This document shows positions 5,287 through 49,980 of a stretch of 64,000 nucleotides of DNA, one piece after another; position 1 is the first letter of the stretch; every line of letters starts with the position of its first letter. The position numbers were made by a program, and so were the translations under genes. The DNA lies in assembly GCA_947629265.1 (NCBI GenBank), contig CANRCZ010000002.1, positions 6,567 to 70,566 on the forward strand. The letters run 5' to 3'. The notes under the pieces are model-generated. The model was given only the letters and a program-made list of their open reading frames with translations. It did no database searches and was not told the DNA's origin. The stretch is from an uncultured Bacilli bacterium (lineage in GTDB: Bacteria > Bacillota_I > Bacilli_A > RF39 > UBA660).

Positions 5287-5514
5287 AAAATCACTTCCTA
5301 ATCTCTATTATACTAAAAAAGTATATAAAGTAAAGTTAATATTTAATTTTCAATATAAAATAAAAATCCTTTAGTAATAATATTGGATTGTTTTCTAAGA
5401 TTTTATTAATTTATTTTACTAATAATTTTTTGTTAATATTAAAATTTATGTATGAATTATCATTTTACATAATTAGTAAATAATGTTATAATGTTTAATA
5501 TAAAGAGGTGGATT

Positions 5515-6960
5515 ATGCGAAGTAAAAAATTAAAAAGAAAAAGAATACGTATTGCAAGTATTGTAATATTTACTTTAATGGTAATAATGATGTGTATTTT
5601 TATGGGATATTTAAAATATACTAACGTTTTATCTATGAAATATTATGGAGCTATACTATTTATGTTTTTAGTAATTGTATTACTTACTATGGCTATAACA
5701 TTTAAAAAGAATATAAAAAGTGGCATTAAAATCTTTTTTGATGTAATAATGGTTATTATTACATGTTTATTGGTAGCTGGAATGTTTCCTATGAGTAAAT
5801 TAATGAACTTTATGGGAAACATTCAAGATGATAACAAAGAATATGAAAATTATTATGTTTTAGTTCTAAAAGATAGTAAATATGATAAACTAAATGATAT
5901 TAAAAATAAAAATATCGGAATTTTAAAAAGTGATGATAAAGAATATAAAAATGCTTTAGAAAAATTAAATGATACTGTAAAAACAAAACAAACAGATTAT
6001 AAAGATAGCACAGCTTTATCAGATAACTTGTTAAATAAAAAAGAAGAGGCTATATTCATTGATAGTGTTGGTTATTATATGACAGAAGAAGAAACCAGTA
6101 AATATTATGGTAAATTTAAAGTATTAGATACTATTAATATAGCAACTGAAAGCAAAATTGAAAAAGAAGATGTTAATGTTGTAAAAGAATCATTTAACAT
6201 TTATATTAGTGGTATTGATACATATGGTAAAATATCTACTAAATCAAGAAGTGATGTAAATATTATAGCTACAGTAAATCCTAAAACCAATAAGGTATTA
6301 TTGACTAGCATTCCACGTGATTATTATGTACAATTACATGGAACTACTGGATATAAAGATAAATTAACACATGCTGGTGTTTACGGAATTAATCAATCAA
6401 TTAATACTATTGAGGATTTATTAGATATTAAAATTAACTACTATATGAGGGTAAATTTTACAACATTAATTAAAATGGTAGATGTCATTGGTGGTGTGGA
6501 TATTAATTCTGATATGTCTTTTTATCCTTTATCTGATTCAACATGTTATATAAAGAAAGGTAATAATCATTTAAATGGTAAATGTGCTTTAGCATATGCA
6601 AGAGAAAGACATGCTTATGCCTCAGGAGATAGACATAGAGGACAAAATCAACAACAAATTATAACAGCTATGATTAATAAATTTACAACAAATAAATCAT
6701 TAGTTTTAAAATATAACAGTATATTTAATTCATTAGAGGGAAGTTTTCAAACTAATATGGGTACAAGTAAAATTACATCACTTGTTCAAAAACAAATTGA
6801 TTCTATGCCAAGTTGGGATATTGAATCATACAATCTAGATGGTAGTGGTAAAATGACATATACATATAGTTATCCAGGACAAAAATTATATGTAATGGTT
6901 CCATATGAAGAAACTGTAGAAACAGCTAAAACAAAAATAGACAGTTTATTACAGGAATAA
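5515..6960 (+). CDS. LytR-CpsA-Psr (LCP) family cell-envelope phosphotransferase
   Basis: N-terminal TM segments, then an LCP core (ATVNPKTNKVLLTSIPRDYYV...GVYGIN...MRVNFTTLIKMVDVIGGVDIN). Start moved to the ATG at 5515, preceded by AAGAGGTGG. The track start at 5491 has no SD. Confidence 0.7.
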   Translation: MRSKKLKRKRIRIASIVIFTLMVIMMCIFMGYLKYTNVLSMKYYGAILFMFLVIVLLTMAITFKKNIKSGIKIFFDVIMVIITCLLVAGMFPMSKLMNFMGNIQDDNKEYENYYVLVLKDSKYDKLNDIKNKNIGILKSDDKEYKNALEKLNDTVKTKQTDYKDSTALSDNLLNKKEEAIFIDSVGYYMTEEETSKYYGKFKVLDTINIATESKIEKEDVNVVKESFNIYISGIDTYGKISTKSRSDVNIIATVNPKTNKVLLTSIPRDYYVQLHGTTGYKDKLTHAGVYGINQSINTIEDLLDIKINYYMRVNFTTLIKMVDVIGGVDINSDMSFYPLSDSTCYIKKGNNHLNGKCALAYARERHAYASGDRHRGQNQQQIITAMINKFTTNKSLVLKYNSIFNSLEGSFQTNMGTSKITSLVQKQIDSMPSWDIESYNLDGSGKMTYTYSYPGQKLYVMVPYEETVETAKTKIDSLLQE

Positions 6961-7215
6961 TAAAATTAATTATCCCTGTAATAAATACCAATTATAGAAA
7001 ACGATTTTACTTTAATATAACAAATAAATACTATATAAAAGATTTATGAGTTCCTCATCAAATGTTTGTAGTTATCAAATATTTATTAAAGTTAATTTAA
7101 TAGTTGTGTTGATTTCAGTTTTTCTTTTAGTGGTGTGTCTTGATGGATGGTATCTGATATAAATAGTTATAGTTTTAAGTAATAATTATAACTTTGAATG
7201 ATAGGGTGGGTAATT

Positions 7216-8325
7216 ATGAAAAATTTAAAAGTTGATAGTAAACCAAAAAATCATCGCCAATCAAATATAGAATTACTTAGAATTGTATCGATGTTATTTA
7301 TTATAATGTTTCATTATGTATATAAAAGTGGATATACCTCACCAACATTTACATTTAATTATTTTATAGTAAAATTATTTTATATGCTTGGTGAATTAGG
7401 AGTAAATATATTTATTCTAATAAGCGGTTATTTTATGATAAAAGGTAAGTTTAGTATAAAGAAATTAATTAAATTATTATTAGAAGTAGAATTTTATTAC
7501 CTTTTTTCAGTGTTTATCGCTTCAAAACTAGGAATTTACACAGTTAGTCATACTTTTAAAGGTATATTTATGTTGTTCTTCCCAACTACTTTAAATAGGT
7601 ATTGGTTTATAACAGTTTACGTATTGATCTATATTTTAAGTCCATATCTAAATATACTAGCTAATAACATGGATAAAAAGACTTATCAAAAGTTTTTGTT
7701 TACTGTTTTATTAATATGGTGCGTGATACCAACTTTCTTTGGATTATTTTTTAACGGAACAGAATCAATGTTATATTATTCAAGATTTATCTGGCTTATT
7801 ATAATATATTTTGTTGGTGCTTATATAAGACTAAATCCTGTAAATATTTTTTCTAAAAATAATAATGCCATCATATGTTTTTCAATATCAACAGTGGCAA
7901 CTATTATAGGAATTTTAGGTTTTTATAAATTTAGAAATATTTTAGCAAATTTAGGTACAACAGAAATTGCATATTTTTGGCAACCAAATTCCATTTTAAT
8001 GTTTTTATTAAGTATTTCATTATTCACTATTTTTCTAAAGGTAAAAATAAACTATAATTTTATAATAAATAAATTAGCATCTACAACTTTAGCAGTCTAC
8101 ATGTTACATGATGGTATCTTGCAAGGGTATATTTGGAATAATATTTTTAAAACAAAAATGAGGCTCGGGGGGGGGTATTCTATAATTCATATATTGATTG
8201 CAACCGTAATAATATACCTAGTTGGCAGTGTAATAGATTTAATAAGACAATTCTTATTTGATAACGTACTAGATAGATTGATAAATAACTTTAAATCAAA
8301 AAAAGCATCAGTGCAACTTAATTAA
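7216..8325 (+). CDS. Acyltransferase_3 family (OatA/OafA-like) integral membrane O-acyltransferase
   Basis: NHRQSNIELLRIVSMLFIIMFH and about 10 TM segments are typical of acyltransferase family 3. ATG at 7216 follows GGGTGGG. Contains an in-frame G9 tract at 8167-8175. Confidence 0.6.
   Translation: MKNLKVDSKPKNHRQSNIELLRIVSMLFIIMFHYVYKSGYTSPTFTFNYFIVKLFYMLGELGVNIFILISGYFMIKGKFSIKKLIKLLLEVEFYYLFSVFIASKLGIYTVSHTFKGIFMLFFPTTLNRYWFITVYVLIYILSPYLNILANNMDKKTYQKFLFTVLLIWCVIPTFFGLFFNGTESMLYYSRFIWLIIIYFVGAYIRLNPVNIFSKNNNAIICFSISTVATIIGILGFYKFRNILANLGTTEIAYFWQPNSILMFLLSISLFTIFLKVKINYNFIINKLASTTLAVYMLHDGILQGYIWNNIFKTKMRLGGGYSIIHILIATVIIYLVGSVIDLIRQFLFDNVLDRLINNFKSKKASVQLN
8167..8175. repeat. poly-G tract (G9) inside the acyltransferase ORF
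   Basis: aggctc GGGGGGGGG tattc encodes RLGGGY. The same aggctYggggggggg context recurs at 40858. Confidence 0.85.
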
Positions 8326-16239: not shown

Positions 16240-17094
16240 ATGGGAAGATTATTTAATAAGAAAAAATTTGTTTTTGTTTTTGGATTATTGATAGGAGTAA
16301 TCATCATGGGAGGAGCGAGCTATGCTTTAAATGAGATCCAAAGTAGTAGTGTTAGTTATAAGAAAAAAGATGGAACGATTACGACTGTTAAACAAGCTTT
16401 AGATGATTTAATTAATACGTCATTAAGTAGAATTGATGAATTAGATGAGAAAGTAACTGATTATGAGAAAGGTATTCATTATTTAGCGGATGTGGTTAAA
16501 GTTGGAGAATATGTTGCCTATGATGCTGGTGAGTGGAATGAAACAAAAGAGAAACCAAAATCACAAGGAGAATTTGGTGGATATACTGATGGGCAAAGTA
16601 AAAATGATAGTGTAGAGTGGTGTTATAGTAATAGTCATACCACCTCATTAAAGGGATGGCGAGTGTTATCAAAAAATGAAACAACTAAAACTGTAACCAT
16701 TATACACGCCGGTCAACCGGAATGTTATTATCACGGTACTAATCCTACAGAAAGTATAACTAAGTTAAATGATCGAGCTAAAAATCAGTATTTAAACCAA
16801 ATATACGCCGAGTCAGCCCATGCCATGAATTATGGTGATGCATATGCAATTACCGGAGATGGTGGTGCTACTAGTGAGACATTGCGAAATACTGGATCTT
16901 TGTATTGGTTAACTAATTCTGGTTATCCAACTGGCTTATATTATGTGTGGTATGATGGTAGTATTCATAGTGATGAGACTAATTCATTTGGCTTTCGTCC
17001 AGTCATTGAATTAAAAGCTAAAATATTAACAACGGGTCAAGGATCAGATAAAGTAGGCAATAATAAAGCATGGCAACTTGTAAAACCACAATAA
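16240..17094 (+). CDS. membrane-anchored surface protein P1 of the two-Cys C-terminal domain family (possible C-type-lectin/FGE-like fold)
   Basis: Signal anchor FGLLIGVIIMGGASYA. Conserved SVSYKKKDGTITTVKQALDDLI segment. C-terminal domain VGEYVAYDAGEWN...VEWC...LKGWRVL...HAGQPECYYHG...YAESAHAMN...YWL...GFRPVIELK, shared with four paralogs. Confidence 0.6.
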   Translation: MGRLFNKKKFVFVFGLLIGVIIMGGASYALNEIQSSSVSYKKKDGTITTVKQALDDLINTSLSRIDELDEKVTDYEKGIHYLADVVKVGEYVAYDAGEWNETKEKPKSQGEFGGYTDGQSKNDSVEWCYSNSHTTSLKGWRVLSKNETTKTVTIIHAGQPECYYHGTNPTESITKLNDRAKNQYLNQIYAESAHAMNYGDAYAITGDGGATSETLRNTGSLYWLTNSGYPTGLYYVWYDGSIHSDETNSFGFRPVIELKAKILTTGQGSDKVGNNKAWQLVKPQ

Positions 17095-17518: not shown

Positions 17519-18349
17519 ATGAAATTAATTAAAAATTTATTTAAACAAAAACTTGGTATTGCTTTTGGATTGCTAATAGGAGTAGTACTTATGGGTGGTG
17601 TAAGTAGAGGACTCGACCAATATACTAGTGCAGGGGTGAGCTATACTGGAAAAGATGGAAAGTTAACAACTGTCAAAGATGCATTAGACAATTTGATAGA
17701 TAAATCATTAACTCAAATTGATACGTTAGAGAAAAAAGTTAGCGAGTTGGAAAAACAAAAATCAAATGTTTATTTAGCAGAGGTCGCAAAACAAGGTGAC
17801 TATGTAGCTTATGATGCTGGTAACTGGAATGGAGCAACTGGTCAACCAGCAAGTCAAGGTGGATTTGGAGGAAATGGAACAGGTAATCGTGGAAATAGTG
17901 TAGCATGTAGAGAAAGTACAGCTCCGTCCTTAAAAGGTTGGAGAGTATTAAAAATTGAAAGTGGCCAAGTTTACCTAGTTCACGCAAGCCAACCTGAATG
18001 TTACTATCATGGATATAATCCAAGTGATAGCCAAACTAAATTAGCTGCAAGGGCACAAAGTACTTACTTAAATGGAACATATGCCGAATCTGCACATGCT
18101 ATGAATAAAGAAGAGGTTGAAGCTATTGACTCATCTAATGACTTACGAGCCACTGGAACACAATATTGGTTGTCCACCATTTTCGGTACTTACAACATAT
18201 ATTACGTGTTCACAGATGGTAGCTTCCGCTCCCTCAGCGGCGACTCGCTTGGCTTCCGGCCGGTTGTAGTTCTTAAATCTACAGTCCTTACCACCGGAAA
18301 AGGATCAGATGGCCTTGGACATAGTAATGCATGGTTAATAACAATTTGA
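17519..18349 (+). CDS. surface protein P2 of the two-Cys C-terminal domain family, with an NNC-codon-rich C-terminal variable segment
   Basis: Same architecture as P1. The segment between YWL and GFRPVVVLK is GC-rich and A-poor with mostly C-ending codons (agc ttc cgc tcc ctc agc ggc gac ...). Confidence 0.6.
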   Translation: MKLIKNLFKQKLGIAFGLLIGVVLMGGVSRGLDQYTSAGVSYTGKDGKLTTVKDALDNLIDKSLTQIDTLEKKVSELEKQKSNVYLAEVAKQGDYVAYDAGNWNGATGQPASQGGFGGNGTGNRGNSVACRESTAPSLKGWRVLKIESGQVYLVHASQPECYYHGYNPSDSQTKLAARAQSTYLNGTYAESAHAMNKEEVEAIDSSNDLRATGTQYWLSTIFGTYNIYYVFTDGSFRSLSGDSLGFRPVVVLKSTVLTTGKGSDGLGHSNAWLITI

Positions 18350-39606: not shown

Positions 39607-40719
39607 ATGTTTAAAGAAAACGGAAGACTTATAATAGGTATATTTATTGGTGTTATTTTAATGGGAGGGGTTAGCTATGCTGTTAATAGTTTTACAAGTG
39701 AAAGTGTGAGTTATACTAGAAACGGTCAAACGATGAATGTAAAACAAGCATTAGATGACCTTATTGTTAAGGTTGATAAAAAGAGTGGTAACTTTAATAT
39801 TGAACTTACAACAGAACAGACAGTGGTAAAAGATAAGACAGTAGATGCAATGACATATAAAACTATGATTAATAGTGTAATCGATAAAATGATATCTGCA
39901 ATGGGATCAACAGCTAAAATGGCAGAATTAACAGCATTAAAAAATGCAACATCGTTAACATGGGCAAGTGAAAATACAACTATTGCGAGTGTAACGAATA
40001 ATACAACCGTAAAAGGTGTTAAAGTAGGAACAACTAGAGTAATAGGGACAACATCTAATGGCAAACAGGTAATAGTACCAGTAAATGTTAAATCAGCATC
40101 ATATTTAGCTGTTCAAGCTAATGTTGGAGACTACGTAGTGTATAATGCCGGAAAATGGGATTCATCAGCTAATAACCCAACTGAATATTATGCATTTGGA
40201 GAATATAAACAGGGACAAAGCAAAAATGCTAGTGTTGAATGGTGTAGCGATGAAAATAATAAAACGACATTAAAAGGTTGGCGTGTATTATCAAAAGATA
40301 CGAATTCTAAAACAGTAACTATAATCCATGCCGGTCAACCGGAATGCTACCGGCATAATACATATACTTATAGTAATGCTGGTGATGAAAGTGTAGCTAG
40401 ATTAAATTTGCGTGCTAAAAATCAATATTTGAATGCAACATATGCACAATCAGCCAGATCAATGACAAAAGCTGATTTAGATACTATTACTCCTGAAAGT
40501 AACACATTACGAAAAACAGGAGAGATGTATTGGTTGGCTAATGCAAACTCTGGTTACTTGTGGTACGTGACAACTTATGGTACTTTTGTCGATGGTTACT
40601 CAGGTACCTACTCATATGGTTTTCGACCTGTCATTGTTCTAAAACAAGGAATGCTAACAACAGGTAAAGTAAAAGATGAATTTAATCAAGATGCTTGGAG
40701 TTTAGTATTACCAAGCTAA
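39607..40719 (+). CDS. surface protein P3 of the two-Cys C-terminal domain family
   Basis: Signal anchor IGIFIGVILMGGVSYA, an inserted ~110-aa middle region, and a C-terminal domain (VGDYVVYNAGKWD...VEWC...LKGWRVL...HAGQPECYRHN...YAQSARSM...YWL...GFRPVIVLK) with an AT-rich, unremarkable variable segment. Confidence 0.6.
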   Translation: MFKENGRLIIGIFIGVILMGGVSYAVNSFTSESVSYTRNGQTMNVKQALDDLIVKVDKKSGNFNIELTTEQTVVKDKTVDAMTYKTMINSVIDKMISAMGSTAKMAELTALKNATSLTWASENTTIASVTNNTTVKGVKVGTTRVIGTTSNGKQVIVPVNVKSASYLAVQANVGDYVVYNAGKWDSSANNPTEYYAFGEYKQGQSKNASVEWCSDENNKTTLKGWRVLSKDTNSKTVTIIHAGQPECYRHNTYTYSNAGDESVARLNLRAKNQYLNATYAQSARSMTKADLDTITPESNTLRKTGEMYWLANANSGYLWYVTTYGTFVDGYSGTYSYGFRPVIVLKQGMLTTGKVKDEFNQDAWSLVLPS

Positions 40720-40778
40720 AATAATTTAATTACAATTTAGGCCTTATTTTTCAACTTGTTTTTTGTAATTAAAACGTC

Positions 40779-40815
40779 TTGAAAATATAATATAATTATT
40801 GTATAATTAAGATGT
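40779..40815 (+). promoter_or_regulatory. promoter of P4 (TTGAAA ... TGTATAAT extended -10)
   Basis: TTGAAA at 40779-84 and TG-n-TATAAT about 17 nt downstream. AGGAG SD at 40826-30 serving the ATG at 40843. Confidence 0.45.
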
Positions 40816-40861
40816 AAAAATAAAGGAGAGGAAGATAAAAAAATGAAAGAAAAAATAAGGC

Positions 40862-43800
40862 TTGGGGGGGGGTTATTCAACCCTAAAAAATAAGGGATTT
40901 ACGCTAATAGAGCTATTGGCAGTAATCGTTATATTAGCAATCATCGCAACGATAGCAGTGCCAATAGTATTAAACTTAATTGAACAATCAAGAAAAAATG
41001 CTTTTAAGGATAGTGTCTATGGCATTATGGAAGCAGCAGATCTATTCGTAGTATCAGAAAATTATAATCCTAATGATGAAATAGAATTTGTCTGCGATGG
41101 AGCATCTTGTTCTTTAGATGATGGTAGACAACTATCATTTAAAGGAGATGTACCTATAAGTGGAAGCATTCAAATAAAAGATAAAAATACTTTAGCATAT
41201 TTTATAAAAAGTAATGAATATTGTGCTTTAGGTACAAAAGAAAATTTAGATGTAAATAAAGACTGTACCAAACTAGATTATACAAAAGCTGAAATAGAAT
41301 TAAATTTAGTAAAGTCAACAACTAATAGTGTTATAGTATCATTTGAAGCGACAGATATCGAATCAGGTATATCTAATGTAGAGGTTAAATTAAATGATGA
41401 TGTAAAAAATTTTGAATATGAAAAATCACCAATTGTAACCAGTGGTGAAGCTGGTATAGTATTTGATAAACTAGAAAGTAATAAAGAATACACAGTAACA
41501 TTAACTGTAACAAATGGTAACTACTTAACTGAAACTAAAGATTTAAAAGTATCAACTAAAGAAATGAAAAATCCAGATTTAGTATCTATAAATGATCCAA
41601 CAGAAGCTCAAGATGGATATTTTAAAACTCAAACGATAAAAATAACTTTTGATAAAGAAAATGTATCAGAAACAACCAAACATTATGTAAAGACAACTAA
41701 AGAGGGTACAAGTAGTATAGGGGTTACAAAGAGATGTGGTAATATTGATGATACAGATACACCAGATGTTAATAAATGTGAAACTATAAATAGTACAACA
41801 ACATTAGCAGCAAATGTATGGTATGAAATTGATGGTGATTTAGATGTTAAATATGATAAGACAGATAAAACCACAGATAAAAATTTATATGCAATAACAT
41901 ACGATGGAACAAATTATAGTAATTCATCAACATATACCTTATCTAAAATAGATGGAACAAAACCAACATTAGAAATGAAAGAAATAATATCTAAAACAGA
42001 TAAGTTATCAATAGGATATACCGCAACTGATGATGAATCAGGAATAGAAACAAGAACATGTAAATATGGAACAACTCAAAGTAATTTAGATAAAGAAGGA
42101 GCAATAACTGATACCAATTGTGGCCTTACAAAATTAAATCCAAAAACAACATATTACTATAAAATATGTGTAACTGATAAAGTAGGTAATGAAGAGGTAT
42201 GTAAAGAAGGACATACAGATACACAAGCATTTATTAATCCAAAACTAGATTCAGTTATAAGCCCTACAACAGCAGTAAGTGGCTTTGTGAAGACACAAAG
42301 TATAACAGCAACATTTAACAATGCAAATATAGAAAATCCAAATCATTATATAAAAACAACAAGAGAAGGAACAGCAAGCGATAATGTAACAGAAAGTTGT
42401 GGAAGCGAGGACAATCCAGGTAATTGTACAAGTATTACAGGAACAACAACATTAAGTGCAAATACATGGTATAAAGTAAATGGAACTACAATTACGGTAA
42501 AATATGATAAAGCTAGTACAGCAACTGGAGATACTTTAACAGCCATAACCTATGATGGAACAAACTATAGTGGAGTAGCAACATATACATTATCAAAGAT
42601 AGATGCAACAAATCCAACATTTACAATGAATACAGCAACTTCAACAACAAATAGTATAAGTATACCATATACAGCATCAGATAGTGAAACAGGAGTAAAT
42701 GTAACATGTAAATATGGAACAACAAATGGAAACTATGGAACTAGTGGATCATTAGCAAATAATACATGTACATTATCAGGCTTAAAAGCAGGAACAACAT
42801 ATTACTATCAAATGTGTGCTAGTGATGGAGTAGGAAATGAAGCAACATGTCAAACAAGTAGTTTTGCAACTAAATCAATAACAGCACCAAGTATAACATT
42901 AACAACAAATACAGCAGGGACAGTAGCAAATTACGCATTAAAACAAGTGGCAGCAGTAACATTTAATAAAACTAATGTAACAAGCCCAACATATTATATA
43001 AAAACAACGAAAACAGGAACAAGTAGTTTGGGTGTAACACAAAGTTGTGGAAATGGAACTACACCAGGAACTTGTAGTAATGTAACAAGTACAACAACAT
43101 TAAGTGCAAATCTATGGTACAAAGTAAGTGGAAATGTTAATGTAACATATAGCACACCAAGTACAGCAACAGGAACACTATCAGCCATAACATACGATGG
43201 AACAAATTATAGTACAGCAGCAAGTCAAGCTATAAGTATGATAGAGCAATCTGCAACAAGTATATCATTAAATAAAACAAGTGCAACAATAAAAGAAGGA
43301 GAGACAACAACATTAACAGCAACAATATCACCAACTACAACAACAAATAAGAATGTAACGTGGTCGACGAATAATGCTAATGTAGCAACAGTATCAGGAG
43401 GAACAGTAACAGGAAAAGGAGTAGGAACAGCTACGATAACAGCAAAGACAGCAAATAATCAAAGTACAACAGCAACAATAACAGTACAACCCAAAGGTGA
43501 ATTATTATATGGTAAAGTATCTGTTGGAGATTACGTAGCCTATGATGCTGGAAAATGGGGTGCTGCTACTGATATACCAACATATTCAAGTTCCGTGAAA
43601 TTTGGAGGAAATGCAGCAAATACAAATAAAGGAATGAGTGCAAAATGTTATAATTCTACAACATTAAACGGATGGCGTGTACTTAAAAAAGAAAATAATC
43701 AAGTAACAATAGTCCACGCTGGCCAACCCGAATGTCATTTTCATTATTATTCTGAAATGAACGCTATAACTTTATTAAATAACAGAGCAAAACAATACAT

Positions 43801-44134
43801 GGATTCAACATATGCCGAATCAGCTCATGCTATGACTAGAGATGAAGCCAAAGCAATTACTGGTGATGAGCGTAGTACTGATAACGACTTACGAGACATT
43901 GGAGCGTTTTATTGGCTAGCTAGTATTTCTAGCGAGAGTGTCGGCATGGGCTACGATAACCTTTACCTATTTTACGTTAACGGCGCTGGCGGCATCAACG
44001 AATACGGCAATGGCGTCAATGAAGCGTACGGTTTCCGTCCTGTAGTAGTCTTAAAATCTAATGTCTTAACCTCAGGACAAACAACAGATCAATTTGGAAA
44101 TGCTAAATCTTGGACTTTAGTAGGATTAAAATAA
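40862..44134 (+). CDS. giant prepilin-type (class III signal) surface protein P4: pilin N-terminus, three FN3-like repeats, a Big_2 domain and the family two-Cys C-terminal domain
   Basis: KG|FTLIELLAVIVILAIIATIAVP is a canonical type IV prepilin cleavage/N-methylation motif. Three ~215-aa repeats (...TYDGTNYS...YTLSKIDGT...CKYGTT...YYYK.C..D..GNE) follow. Big_2-like segment SISLNKTSATIKEGETTTLTATISP...VTGKGVGTATITAKT. C-terminal domain VGDYVAYDAGKWG...AKCYNS...LNGWRVL...HAGQPECHFHY...YAESAHAM...YWL...GFRPVVVLK with an NNC/AAC-rich variable segment. The track start is a TTG with no SD. The real start is probably the ATG at 40843 after -1 G slippage. Confidence 0.6.
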   Translation: MGGGYSTLKNKGFTLIELLAVIVILAIIATIAVPIVLNLIEQSRKNAFKDSVYGIMEAADLFVVSENYNPNDEIEFVCDGASCSLDDGRQLSFKGDVPISGSIQIKDKNTLAYFIKSNEYCALGTKENLDVNKDCTKLDYTKAEIELNLVKSTTNSVIVSFEATDIESGISNVEVKLNDDVKNFEYEKSPIVTSGEAGIVFDKLESNKEYTVTLTVTNGNYLTETKDLKVSTKEMKNPDLVSINDPTEAQDGYFKTQTIKITFDKENVSETTKHYVKTTKEGTSSIGVTKRCGNIDDTDTPDVNKCETINSTTTLAANVWYEIDGDLDVKYDKTDKTTDKNLYAITYDGTNYSNSSTYTLSKIDGTKPTLEMKEIISKTDKLSIGYTATDDESGIETRTCKYGTTQSNLDKEGAITDTNCGLTKLNPKTTYYYKICVTDKVGNEEVCKEGHTDTQAFINPKLDSVISPTTAVSGFVKTQSITATFNNANIENPNHYIKTTREGTASDNVTESCGSEDNPGNCTSITGTTTLSANTWYKVNGTTITVKYDKASTATGDTLTAITYDGTNYSGVATYTLSKIDATNPTFTMNTATSTTNSISIPYTASDSETGVNVTCKYGTTNGNYGTSGSLANNTCTLSGLKAGTTYYYQMCASDGVGNEATCQTSSFATKSITAPSITLTTNTAGTVANYALKQVAAVTFNKTNVTSPTYYIKTTKTGTSSLGVTQSCGNGTTPGTCSNVTSTTTLSANLWYKVSGNVNVTYSTPSTATGTLSAITYDGTNYSTAASQAISMIEQSATSISLNKTSATIKEGETTTLTATISPTTTTNKNVTWSTNNANVATVSGGTVTGKGVGTATITAKTANNQSTTATITVQPKGELLYGKVSVGDYVAYDAGKWGAATDIPTYSSSVKFGGNAANTNKGMSAKCYNSTTLNGWRVLKKENNQVTIVHAGQPECHFHYYSEMNAITLLNNRAKQYMDSTYAESAHAMTRDEAKAITGDERSTDNDLRDIGAFYWLASISSESVGMGYDNLYLFYVNGAGGINEYGNGVNEAYGFRPVVVLKSNVLTSGQTTDQFGNAKSWTLVGLK
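40864..40872. repeat. poly-G tract (G9) between the SD-linked ATG (40843) and the body of the P4 ORF
   Basis: aggctt GGGGGGGGG ttattc. At G9 the ATG at 40843 terminates after 14 codons (MKEKIRLGGGLFNPKK*). At G8 it reads through as MKEKIRLGGGYSTLKNKG|FTLIELL... Confidence 0.85.
41560..43230 (+). repeat. three tandem ~640-nt intragenic repeats encoding FN3-like modules of P4
   Basis: Recurring DNA and protein blocks (acatacgatggaacaaattatag..., ITYDGTNYS, TLSKIDGT/ATNPT, TCKYGTT, TTYYYK/QMC). Confidence 0.6.
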
Positions 44135-44285
44135 TAACGAAGAAACTCTAAAATTATTTGGGGTTTTTTTGTTTTATATCAAAAATATAAATGTCGAAAA
44201 TTGTCGTACAATTTTTGATACAAATTTTTTCTAAAAAAAAGGAAATGAAAAAGTTTTGTCGTATCATATAAGTAGGGAGGGAAAA

Positions 44286-46301
44286 ATGAAAAGGTACGCA
44301 TTTGAAAAACAAGATGGTATAAAAGATTGTGGTGTAGCATGTTTAAAAATGATTATAAGATATCATAAAGGCTACGTTGGTACAGAACTATTAAGAGATA
44401 TGACTAAAACCGACAAAAATGGTGTAACGGCTTTCCACTTAGTAAATACATTAAATAAACTAGGTTTTAAATCTAGAGGTTTGAAAGTATCAATTGATAA
44501 TATCAAAACCTTACCAGCCATAGCTCATGTCACTATCGATAACACTTATAATCATTATGTCGTTATATACAATATCAATAAACAAAAAGAAGAAATCCTA
44601 ATAGCGGATCCAGCTAAAAGAATAATGAAAATGTCTTTTCAAAAGTTTAATGAAATATATAATAACATTATTATCGAAGCTATTCCATATAAAAAAATAC
44701 CCGTTATCAAAGATTATTCAATCTCAAAATTCATTCTAAATTTAATAAAAAATGAGAAAAAAATAATATGTATAATTCTAATAATGTCACTAATTACAAC
44801 GGTATTATCGATTATATCATCTTTCTATGTACAGCTATTACTAAATAATTTGAATCGAAAAATAATTATTCTCTTCTTTTTCATGAGTATATTGTTACTT
44901 ATATTAGAATATATAAAAAACAATATCTTAATTAAATTAGATAGTAAGCTTGATCGTAAACTGACGATGAGTACCTACCAAAACATTATAAACCTCCCTT
45001 ATCAATATTTTAAGAACCGAACAACCGGAGAAATAATAACTCGCTTAAATGACTTAAAAAGTGTCAAAAATACAATAAATAGAGTAATTATTACGATCTT
45101 TATCGATGGTATCCTAGTCTTTTTATCAAGTATCATTTTAATCAAAATAAATGTAGTGCTATTCTTAATAGCAGTAACGATTTTGATTATGTATATACTG
45201 ATAACAATCATATTTAATAATAAATTTAAATACGAAATAAACGATATAAAAGAAAAAAACGAATATCTAAATAGTAACCTAATCGAAAGTATCGATGGTA
45301 TTGAAACAATAAAAGGACTAAACCTCCAACCAGAATTTTTAAATAAAGTTGAAAAAATATATACAGATTATATGAAAGAAAGTATAACCCTAGATAAAAA
45401 AATAAATATTCAATTTACCTTAAAAGAAATGGTCAACACTATCGGTAACATGATTATTCTATGTGTAGGTGTATGGTTTATTCAAAAGAAGATAATGGAT
45501 TTCGGTAGTCTATTCACTTTCCTGACTTTAGTAGCTTACTTTTTAAATCCAATTAGAAATATTATCGACTTAAATATCGATATCACTGAATCAATCAGTG
45601 CTATAAAAAGAATCTTAGAACTAGATTACTACCAAAATGATCCTGGTAAAATAAACATTGATGAAATAAACAATATCGAAATAAAAAAACTATCTTATTC
45701 CTATAACGACTACAATTATATATTAAAAGATATCAATTTAAAAATATCTAAAGGTGAACATATTATGGTAGTTGGTACAAGTGGTAGTGGTAAATCTAGT
45801 TTACTAAAAATAATTAATAATTACTATGAAACCAAAAAACAAGTTTATATAAATGATAACGAAATAAACCAATTAAAAAATATACCAATTAATTACATAT
45901 CCCAAAACGAAATTTTATTTACTGACACTTTATTCAATAATTTAAAACTTAATCGTCAAATAGATAAAAACACTATTGAAAAAATATACAAAGAGTACGA
46001 AATCGATAAAATAATTCCTTTAAACGGATTAATCGAAGAAAATGGTTTTAACATATCCGGTGGTGAAAAACAAAGAATTGTACTCGCTAGAACATTATTA
46101 AATCAACCTAAGTTTTTAATTATCGACGAAGCCTTAAATCAAGTAGATATCAACATGGAAAGAAAAATATTAAAACAAATACTAAAAATCAAAAATTTGA
46201 CTTTAATATACGTATCACATCGTAATAACAACGTCGATCTATTTGATAGAGTTATTAAAATCGAAGACGGGTTCTTAAAAGAAGATATCAGAAAGGAATG
46301 A
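44286..46301 (+). CDS. peptidase-C39 domain ABC exporter (bacteriocin/double-glycine peptide processing transporter)
   Basis: N-terminal C39 domain with the catalytic Cys in DCGVACLKMII. Six TM segments. C-terminal ABC ATPase (GTSGSGKSS, LSGGEKQRIVLAR, FLIIDEA). ATG at 44286 follows GGGAGGG. Confidence 0.75.
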   Translation: MKRYAFEKQDGIKDCGVACLKMIIRYHKGYVGTELLRDMTKTDKNGVTAFHLVNTLNKLGFKSRGLKVSIDNIKTLPAIAHVTIDNTYNHYVVIYNINKQKEEILIADPAKRIMKMSFQKFNEIYNNIIIEAIPYKKIPVIKDYSISKFILNLIKNEKKIICIILIMSLITTVLSIISSFYVQLLLNNLNRKIIILFFFMSILLLILEYIKNNILIKLDSKLDRKLTMSTYQNIINLPYQYFKNRTTGEIITRLNDLKSVKNTINRVIITIFIDGILVFLSSIILIKINVVLFLIAVTILIMYILITIIFNNKFKYEINDIKEKNEYLNSNLIESIDGIETIKGLNLQPEFLNKVEKIYTDYMKESITLDKKINIQFTLKEMVNTIGNMIILCVGVWFIQKKIMDFGSLFTFLTLVAYFLNPIRNIIDLNIDITESISAIKRILELDYYQNDPGKINIDEINNIEIKKLSYSYNDYNYILKDINLKISKGEHIMVVGTSGSGKSSLLKIINNYYETKKQVYINDNEINQLKNIPINYISQNEILFTDTLFNNLKLNRQIDKNTIEKIYKEYEIDKIIPLNGLIEENGFNISGGEKQRIVLARTLLNQPKFLIIDEALNQVDINMERKILKQILKIKNLTLIYVSHRNNNVDLFDRVIKIEDGFLKEDIRKE

Positions 46302-49116: not shown

Positions 49117-49980
49117 ATGAAATTGATTAAAAATTTATTGAAACAAAAACTAGGTGTGACCTTTGGATTAGTAGTTGGTGTCATGTTGATGGGTGGTGTA
49201 AGTAAAGGACTTGACCAATATAATAGTACTGGGGTCAGCTATACTAAAAGTGATGGAACAGTAGTTTCGGTAAAAGATGCTTTAGATGAATTGATAACTA
49301 AATCGTCTAAAGTTGATACATTAGAAAAACAGGTAGCTGATTATAAAAAAGTGATTTTTAACTTATATGATAAAGTAGCTGTAGGAGATTACGTAGCGTA
49401 TGATGCTGGAACATGGGATTCATCAGTACCAGATAAACCAATAGAACAAGGAAAGTTCGGTGGATATAGTCAAGGACAAAGTAAAAATTCTAGTGTAGAA
49501 TGGTGTTGGAAAAGTGATTATAAAACAACATTAAACGGATGGCGTGTACTTAAAAAAGATGGTGGAAAAGTTTACCTAGTTCACGCTGGCCAACCTGAAT
49601 GTTATTATCATGCGGGTAGTAGATATATTGACGCCAGTGAAAAAGCCTTAAACGAAAGAGCACAAAGTACTTACTTAAATACAACATATGCAGACTCAGC
49701 ACATGCTATGAATTATCAAGAAGCATATGATATTGATAAAACTGAACCTATGGTTGCTACCAATAATGATTTACAAAAAACTGGAGATTATTATTATCTG
49801 GCTGCTGACTTTACTGGCAGCATCTGGAGCGTGGAAAATGACGGCAGCATGTGGTCCAACAACATCGCCTCGCGAGGTTTTCGTCCCGTCATCGTCCTAA
49901 AAGCAAGCGTTCAAACTACAGGTAAAGTACACGATGAATTTGGACAAGAAGCTTGGAACTTAATATTACCACCTCAATAA
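49117..49980 (+). CDS. surface protein P5 of the two-Cys C-terminal domain family, with an NNC-codon-rich variable segment
   Basis: Signal anchor FGLVVGVMLMGGVSKG. Conserved SVSYTKSDGTVVSVKDALDELI. C-terminal domain VGDYVAYDAGTWD...VEWC...LNGWRVL...HAGQPECYYHA...YADSAHAMN...YYL...GFRPVIVLK. The variable segment 49800-49905 is rich in gac/ggc/agc/atc/tcc/aac/gcc/gtc codons. Confidence 0.6.
   Translation: MKLIKNLLKQKLGVTFGLVVGVMLMGGVSKGLDQYNSTGVSYTKSDGTVVSVKDALDELITKSSKVDTLEKQVADYKKVIFNLYDKVAVGDYVAYDAGTWDSSVPDKPIEQGKFGGYSQGQSKNSSVEWCWKSDYKTTLNGWRVLKKDGGKVYLVHAGQPECYYHAGSRYIDASEKALNERAQSTYLNTTYADSAHAMNYQEAYDIDKTEPMVATNNDLQKTGDYYYLAADFTGSIWSVENDGSMWSNNIASRGFRPVIVLKASVQTTGKVHDEFGQEAWNLILPPQ

Follow-up and report, generated by a model that had tools for sequence, protein, structure and literature searches.

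In Neisseria, Haemophilus, Campylobacter and Helicobacter, it is textbook knowledge that surface structures phase-vary by slipped-strand mispairing. To our knowledge there is little record of this in the uncultured Bacilli with reduced genomes that abound in the guts of animals and humans, and phase variation in commensals is otherwise known mainly through invertons. Among described systems, Neisseria pilC owes its phase variation to a poly-G tract in the region for the signal peptide (PMC5354566, citing Jonsson et al. 1991), and modular pilins are regarded as probably tip-located, widespread and architecturally diverse (PMC8179133). Here we describe a locus in which a run of nine Gs separates a Shine-Dalgarno (SD)-linked ATG from the body of a large modular type IV pilin gene. 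It lies in a 64-kb stretch of DNA (~27% GC, 15.5% G), referred to below as the window, from an uncultured Bacilli bacterium (GenBank assembly GCA_947629265.1, contig CANRCZ010000002.1, positions 6,567 to 70,566). We consider it highly probable that the run is a simple sequence repeat (SSR) switch, through which slipped-strand changes in length turn translation of the pilin on and off.

All pilin-gene features given below lie on the plus strand. A purine-rich SD region, AAGGAGAGGAAG (40823–40834), with AGGAG at 40824–40828, ends 8 nt 5′ of an ATG at 40843–40845, and the nine Gs follow at 40864–40872 with a T on either side; a preliminary description of this DNA had placed the ATG and the tract correctly and AGGAG at 40826–40830. 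In the G9 state found here the ATG opens a dead-end frame of 16 codons (40843–40893), MKEKIRLGGGLFNPKK, closed by a TAA at 40891–40893, and the 14 codons counted earlier are the value for G10. The long open reading frame (ORF; 40862–44134), which encodes the 1090-aa modular type IV prepilin body and is identical to the database protein P0001, is at G9 reachable only from its annotated start, a TTG without an SD, as had been stated. This TTG (40862–40864) overlaps the first G of the tract, and the sole SD-like sequence before it, AAGG, ends 1 nt 5′ of it. When the tract was rebuilt in silico, initiation at ATG 40843 gave 13 aa at G7, 16 aa at G9 and 14 aa at G10, and full-length prepilins of 1096 aa at G8 (MKEKIRLGGGYSTLKNKG↓FTLIELL..., the arrow marking the cleavage site) and 1097 aa at G11. 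Removal of a single G thus fuses the ATG to a prepilin leader, as first proposed; G8 and G11 are ON lengths, and G7, G9 and G10 are OFF lengths. As at a contingency locus, gain or loss of one G toggles translation of an otherwise intact gene, the 1078-codon body past the Phe codon being fully open in 27%-GC DNA. The predicted prepilin peptidase site, G↓FTLIE (40895–40912; Gly−1 at 40895–40897, Phe+1 at 40898–40900, Glu+5 at 40910–40912), is encoded by GGA↓TTT ACG CTA ATA GAG, 25 nt past the tract; it is followed by a hydrophobic α1-N helix and accompanied by a match to PF07963 above its cutoff.

The tract stands out sharply from the composition of the window. Exactly two G or C runs longer than 5 occur, both of them G9, against 0.003–0.006 expected under a first-order model, and there are no G or C runs of 6–8 in the 64 kb. 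GGG is the rarest glycine codon of the window (31/752, 4.1%), and were Gly-Gly-Gly alone selected, three GGG codons in a row would have a probability of 7 × 10−5. Run statistics and rare GGG usage together indicate that the homopolymer is maintained at the DNA level: they rule out a chance origin, and protein-level selection cannot account for the tract either. At nine Gs the tract exceeds the length of 7–8 at which a homopolymer counts as hypermutable in a contingency locus, and it lies far above compositional expectation.

The poly-G leader is an add-on and not a requirement of the protein, since most of 120 homologue N-termini, including that of the nearest relative P0002 (69% identity), have the plain short leader MKKKG↓FTLIELL. 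In a distant homologue from a different ENA sample (P0064, locus L001; 32% identity), AGGAG, an ATG, 10 codons, G9 and 26 nt precede TTTACTTTAATAGAG. L001 is also out of frame at G9; it needs +1 where the window's gene needs −1, and would be rescued by G10 or G7. When 185,579 species genomes were searched for G8 with TTYACNYTNATHGAR 4–34 nt downstream, at least 119 stretches matched, and a low-GC version of the pattern, run on JGI/ENA metagenome contigs, gave 71. Loci entered the census at GC ≤ 0.37 with an SD and ATG, an open frame to the tract, G8–G15, and 12–32 nt to the Phe codon; all census figures (59 loci, L003–L192) hold among the matches listed. The 59 low-GC loci share one architecture, namely SD, ATG, 18–49 nt, poly-G, 12–32 nt and (G or A)↓FTLIE, with tracts of G8 in 6 loci, G9 in 20, G10 in 24, G11 in 5, G12 in 2, and G13 and G15 in 1 each. 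They come mostly from metagenome-assembled genomes (MAGs) of rabbit, deer, Hadza and other guts whose labels read uncultured Bacilli, Tenericutes, Firmicutes or Lactobacillales, and several may share a MAG (nine loci in Lapin-027__bin54 and five in Lapin-020__bin127, among the matches listed). Across ~540 kb of low-GC loci, 82 prepilin motifs have an upstream G run of at least 8 and 11 do not, a ratio biased by the selection of these loci for the tract; the ~390 kb that the genome scan yielded contain, among the matches listed, just three further G runs of at least 7. High-GC scan matches (Planctomycetota, Verrucomicrobiota, Myxococcus and others), removed by the GC filter, have no SD-ATG layout and were taken as chance or unrelated.

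Tract length varies between alleles that are otherwise almost the same. Among loci whose 48-nt flanks match fully or differ by one base, the number of Gs differs between L172 (G8, ON) and L124 (G9, OFF), between L145 (G9, ON) and L166 (G10, OFF), between L012 and L035 (both G9, ON) and L045 (G10, OFF), and among L190 (G8), L103 (G9) and L142 (G10), while near-identical flanks in the MIKLTNSK family enclose G9, G10, G11, G12 and G13. At family level, alleles with identical flanks are thus polymorphic for G8/G9, G9/G10 and G9–G13. Relative to the SD-linked ATG, 21 census loci are ON and 38 OFF, near the 1:2 expected for free-running lengths, in a count where paralogues of the same MAG are non-independent observations. 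No alternative in-frame start of any kind exists in 22 of the 38 OFF loci. Complete OFF bodies are nevertheless long (median 590 aa, maximum 1218 aa, n = 16; ON median 561 aa), and such intact bodies in ~27%-GC DNA are therefore still under selection, consistent with reversible switching. The nine loci of Lapin-027__bin54 (L020, L022, L023, L024, L032, L034, L049, L068 and L114) comprise eight G10 OFF alleles and one G9 ON allele; their 5′ cassettes are 90–97% identical and their bodies 47–81% identical, which suggests gene conversion of the 5′ cassette together with mostly-OFF expression. The slipped-strand switch put forward in the preliminary description thereby gains support from the 59 loci with this layout, from allele differences in length only, from the presence of both states and from intact OFF ORFs. 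At this very locus, tract-length heterogeneity and switching would be expected from the comparison with these relatives.

In the mechanism we propose, transcription would start from a promoter ~35 nt upstream, and ribosomes would load at the SD and initiate at ATG 40843, presumably with no initiation at TTG 40862. With 8 or 11 Gs, translation would pass through Gly-Gly-Gly(-Gly), continue with YSTLKNKG↓FTLIELL and yield a prepilin of ~1096 aa; with 9 or 10 Gs, it would terminate after 14–16 codons and no adhesin would be made. Slipped-strand mispairing at replication would frequently add or remove single Gs, so that a clonal population would always be a mixture of ON and OFF cells. Prepilin peptidase would cleave off the leader, within whose coding part the G tract sits; with the leader removed, the tract-encoded glycines would be absent from the mature protein and changes of ±3 would be cost-free. 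The N-terminal pilin module would then insert into a filament, probably at its tip, and display the fn3-like repeats, the Big_2 domain and the C-type-lectin-like binding domain. As to the promoter, a site TTGAAA-17 nt-TATAAT (40779–40807), 35 nt 5′ of the ATG, agrees with the consensus at 11 of 12 positions and has the best score in 40600–44400; it is a consensus match only, and promoter-like matches numbered 18 against 20 expected in shuffles, AT-rich DNA yielding many. An Rfam scan gave no match at the pilin locus and two tRNAs in the window as a whole.

The census also raises the prospect of a lineage-wide pilin phasome in uncultured low-GC gut Bacilli, in which many modular pilin-adhesin genes would lie behind a shared, recombining poly-G 5′ leader cassette and the window's switch would be one case. 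We judge this wider proposal to have a little better than an even chance. If it holds, each cell may show a stochastic subset of tip adhesins built from fn3/Big_2/CTLD (C-type-lectin-like domain), BspA-type leucine-rich repeat (LRR), glycine-rich and other modules. BspA-type LRR modules are present in the related poly-G pilin gene L118, and related poly-G genes lie among housekeeping genes, like the pilin gene of the window, whose housekeeping genes include murG, murB, ftsQ, yqfD, parC, prfA, a sigma factor gene and others. The ParC encoded there shares at most 73% identity with any other sequence, its named relatives being entered as 'MAG: Bacilli bacterium' and 'Lactobacillales bacterium', and the source is an uncultured Bacilli-type gut MAG of low GC to which no sequenced relative is close. 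The recurrence of the layout suggests that these bacteria possess a set of switchable surface adhesins not described before.

Outside the strict census, the same design was seen at six loci of one Saccharibacteria MAG (L005, L021, L039, L043, L074 and L117) and at two loci of one Elusimicrobiaceae MAG (L050 and L069; G13, both in frame). Their leader motifs are similar (..NSK..GGG Y.L...A↓FTLIE), and genes neighbouring these loci have decayed or interrupted tracts (G7, or GRY replacing GGGY). The loci with other phylum labels may reflect horizontal transfer, mis-binning or convergence.

Several observations weigh against a translational switch at this locus, or against parts of the picture drawn from it. 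Some alternative in-frame start codon is present in 16 of the 38 OFF loci, and weak initiation at TTG 40862 may likewise occur. The OFF loci are skewed towards one G too many (30 need −1/+2 and 8 need +1/−2); G9 is mostly ON (12/20) and G10 almost always OFF (23/24). This skew could come from insertion bias, selection, non-independent paralogues, or bias of assemblers or Illumina reads. The ON/OFF calls depend on the ATG chosen; L118, with overlapping ATGs in two frames, may be ON. A DNA pattern specific to the window's locus had 0 matches on the metagenome contigs, and no second copy of this exact locus was found in the protein look-up, the species-genome contigs or the metagenome contigs. 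Exact look-ups of P0001 and P0002 gave no record, and those of P0279 and P0245 led to low-coverage ENA contigs of just 1–1.6 kb; a search for related loci with the protein on the species-genome contigs likewise came back empty, so the source is not itself a GTDB species representative. Finally, no Peptidase_A24 (prepilin peptidase), T2SSE (pilus ATPase) or T2SSF (platform) domain was found among ORFs of at least 100 aa in the 64-kb window, so pilus assembly is an assumption here. Contig breaks near these genes were considered as a sign of read heterogeneity and rejected, as they fall in the conserved N-terminal repeat of the pilin genes.

The most serious rival to a switch is a homopolymer miscall, under which the true allele would be G8, the gene would simply be expressed, and the OFF state would be an artefact of assembly or sequencing. 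Every sequencing platform is prone to errors at homopolymers of 9 or more, most OFF alleles of the census lie one G above the ON length, and a few scan matches are clear two-colour poly-G artefacts by appearance, for example the metagenome matches L138 (A30 then G20) and L153 (G27, at a contig end), a class of match that has to be filtered out of poly-G scans. A two-colour Illumina artefact was rejected for the window's locus, where the tract is internal to a contig listed at 97 kb in the protein database, has unique flanks and holds a conserved position. Lengths from G8 to G15, both ON and OFF, occupy that same position in many independent assemblies from different studies. An off-by-one call would, moreover, alter the state assigned to this allele and leave the mechanism as it is, since either G8 or G9 would here still be a hypermutable switch. 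We regard a miscall as unlikely, though worth keeping in mind.

It is considerably less probable that the gene is expressed constitutively from the annotated TTG 40862, with the tract serving only to encode three glycines of a leader of 12 residues, MGGGYSTLKNKG↓FTLIE, and the ATG frame upstream of it irrelevant. The gene caller chose this start for P0001 (1090 aa), and the leader so formed remains basic, with Gly−1 at its end. The TTG, however, has no usable SD, the strong one serving the ATG, and it arises only because TT precedes the G run. An SD and ATG stand upstream of the tract in all 59 related loci, whose ON alleles read straight through, and an in-frame start is lacking altogether in 22 of the 38 OFF alleles. 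The three GGG codons are, as calculated above, unexpected under protein-level selection.

Programmed recoding seems very improbable. Here a genomically stable G9 would yield full-length protein at a constant low level, through frameshifting by the ribosome or slippage of RNA polymerase on the Gs. Transcriptional slippage and tRNA re-pairing can both occur on homopolymer runs, and the window's locus and L001 are both out of frame at exactly G9. Yet most slippage sites known in bacteria are A/T runs, and the shift needed is not constant, being to the +1 frame here and in the other direction at L001 and 7 further loci. Neither a stimulatory element downstream nor a hungry codon is evident, a third of the related loci are in frame as they stand, and alleles with identical flanks differ in the DNA itself. 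A switch at the DNA level could even so be supplemented by leaky slippage. That the gene is a pseudogene decaying from a frameshift at a mutational hot spot is hardly credible: the frame is indeed broken relative to the sole good start, but the long body remains fully open, 16 of 16 complete OFF relatives keep long bodies equal in length to ON ones, and the single change required is the commonest mutation at such a tract.

The switch would thus act on a protein whose domains are those of a modular pilin. Pfam places N_methyl at residues 9–32 (30.7 bits against a cutoff of 21.2), fn3 at 584–660 and a Big_2 Ig-like domain at 798–874 (43253–43483; E = 3.2e-10). The N-terminus has the form of a class III signal peptide, ...KNKG↓FTLIELLAVIVILAIIATIAVPIVL, with a short basic leader, Gly−1, Phe+1, Glu+5 and a stretch of about 20 hydrophobic residues, and nearly all of 460 homologues contain PF07963, some being named prepilin-type, PilA or type II secretion system protein. 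Self-comparison resolves a unit of ~220 aa repeated about three times (232–448, 454–664 and 671–~860), preceded by an extra fn3-like copy at 136–231. The last ~210 aa (residues 881–1089; 43502–44131; motifs HAGQPEC, YWLA and GFRPVVVLK) form a C-terminal domain, presumed to be a ligand-binding tip module, for which an AlphaFold model from 83 sequences has a pLDDT of 93 and a C-type-lectin-like fold. An earlier AF2 model from 5 sequences had a pLDDT of 59, and its Foldseek search was uninformative. A pilin module joined to fn3, Big_2, repeat units and a C-terminal CTLD-like domain corresponds to modular pilins as defined in PMC8179133. By its domains and the structural model, the product is a modular type IV pilin, with a predicted stalk of Ig-like domains and a putative lectin-like tip; adhesin function, processing by prepilin peptidase and assembly into a pilus would follow from this architecture.

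The C-terminal domain occurs in five ORFs of the window (starts at 16240, 17519, 39607, the pilin gene and 49117), which are 42–46% identical to one another. Only one prepilin motif is present in the window, and in the four paralogues (16240–17094, 17519–18349, 39607–40719 and 49117–49980) an N-terminal membrane anchor and a coiled coil replace the pilin module; the paralogue at 39607–40719 additionally has a Big_2 domain. A profile search recovered only 87 relatives of the domain, several per genome. Pfam gave no match to it, apart from a weak DUF6273 hit in one relative (P0110), and a hidden Markov model (HMM) search of PDB sequences gave nothing meaningful. The N-terminal domain of the Thomasclavelia ramosa IgA peptidase (PDB 9qa6) is 17% identical; it has been described as a CTLD core with structural zinc, of unknown function (PMC12237041), and is not needed for catalysis. 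The domain described here is by contrast C-terminal, and sits on a pilin or on transmembrane-anchored paralogues. The preliminary description, which saw a prepilin with fn3-like repeats, a Big_2 domain and a family C-terminal domain, was right on these points; its likening of the tip to those of diversity-generating retroelements (DGRs) finds no support. No RVT (reverse transcriptase) domain was found among the ORFs of the 64-kb window, nor any template repeat in it, and within these 64 kb the last 735 nt of the pilin gene have their best DNA match in a paralogous gene, at 72% over 250 nt. What remains is a resemblance of fold, and DGR variable proteins (TvpA, TaqVP and Mtd) match the domain no better than ordinary C-type lectins do. 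Directly 3′ of the pilin gene, at 44256–46301, lies a C39-peptidase ATP-binding cassette (ABC) exporter of the bacteriocin/double-glycine-leader type.

The second G9 of the window (8167–8175) lies in frame in ORF 7198–8325, at codons 324–326 of an Acyl_transf_3 membrane acyltransferase, near LytR_cpsA_psr (5491–6960) and MBOAT (1173–2702) genes. Rebuilding it to G8 gave a truncated protein of 328 aa, and to G10 one of 354 aa whose tail is changed. This tract probably marks another contingency locus, with the acylation of a surface polymer as its target. The two tracts share flanks (8161–8180 and 40858–40878; AGGCT[C/T]-G9-[T]TATTC), and both encode R-L-G-G-G-Y-S in the ON frame, one in the acyltransferase and the other in the prepilin leader; GGCTY 5′ of the tract was seen in no other fetched low-GC locus. 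The likeness of the flanks could be chance, or could result from copying between the tracts.

In a search of the full-text literature, neither poly-G tracts in the leaders of prepilins nor pilins that phase-vary through SSRs turned up for uncultured gut Bacilli. SSR phase variation as a mechanism is itself well known, and the newer part, the pilin phasome, is probable but unproven. If true, it would give commensals a contingency system of the SSR type. Should the census hold, these bacteria would vary a repertoire of pilus-tip adhesins by G-tract length, readable from metagenomic reads, so that in vivo ON/OFF states of the adhesins become testable across hosts, time and immune pressure. The large family of predicted C-type-lectin-like modules at the surface, with a relative in the N-terminal domain of an IgA protease from the gut, offers candidate host- or glycan-binding tips. 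There is also a lesson for annotation, as gene callers assign wrong TTG starts to such genes, truncate their N-termini or split them.

Among described systems, the closest precedent is that of the PilC1/PilC2 proteins of Neisseria gonorrhoeae and Neisseria meningitidis, which, like the pilin described here, have a homo-G tract in the cleaved N-terminal signal of a pilus-associated adhesin, where frameshifts switch expression ON and OFF RecA-independently and the mature protein lacks the residues that the repeat encodes (PMC5354566). PilC, however, does not belong to the pilins; it is a Sec-type secreted member of the PilY1 family and comes from a diderm pathogen, whereas the present tract lies in the leader, of class III (prepilin) type, of a pilin-module fusion, and its carrier is an uncultured gut bacterium of low GC and monoderm type. 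Unlike that of pilC, the design is repeated across many paralogous pilin genes per genome. The phasomes of Campylobacter jejuni and Helicobacter, the nearest analogy at the genome level, resemble the window in combining a low GC content (~30%) with G8–G13 tracts that are otherwise absent, in the 5′ parts of surface-structure genes, with G9 common and many loci per genome (PMC6321876, PMC2823697). The second G9 of the window, in a gene of surface-polymer acyltransferase type, is a further likeness. The differences are the phylum, the placement in prepilin leaders instead of glycosyltransferase, flagellar or capsule genes, and that the system described here is so far known from sequence alone. 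Streptococcus sanguinis PilB and PilC, like the pilin of the window, graft adhesive modules onto a pilin module with a class III signal peptide (PMC8179133). They have no reported repeat-tract control, and the pilin described here is much larger, at 1090 aa with at least 6 extra domains.

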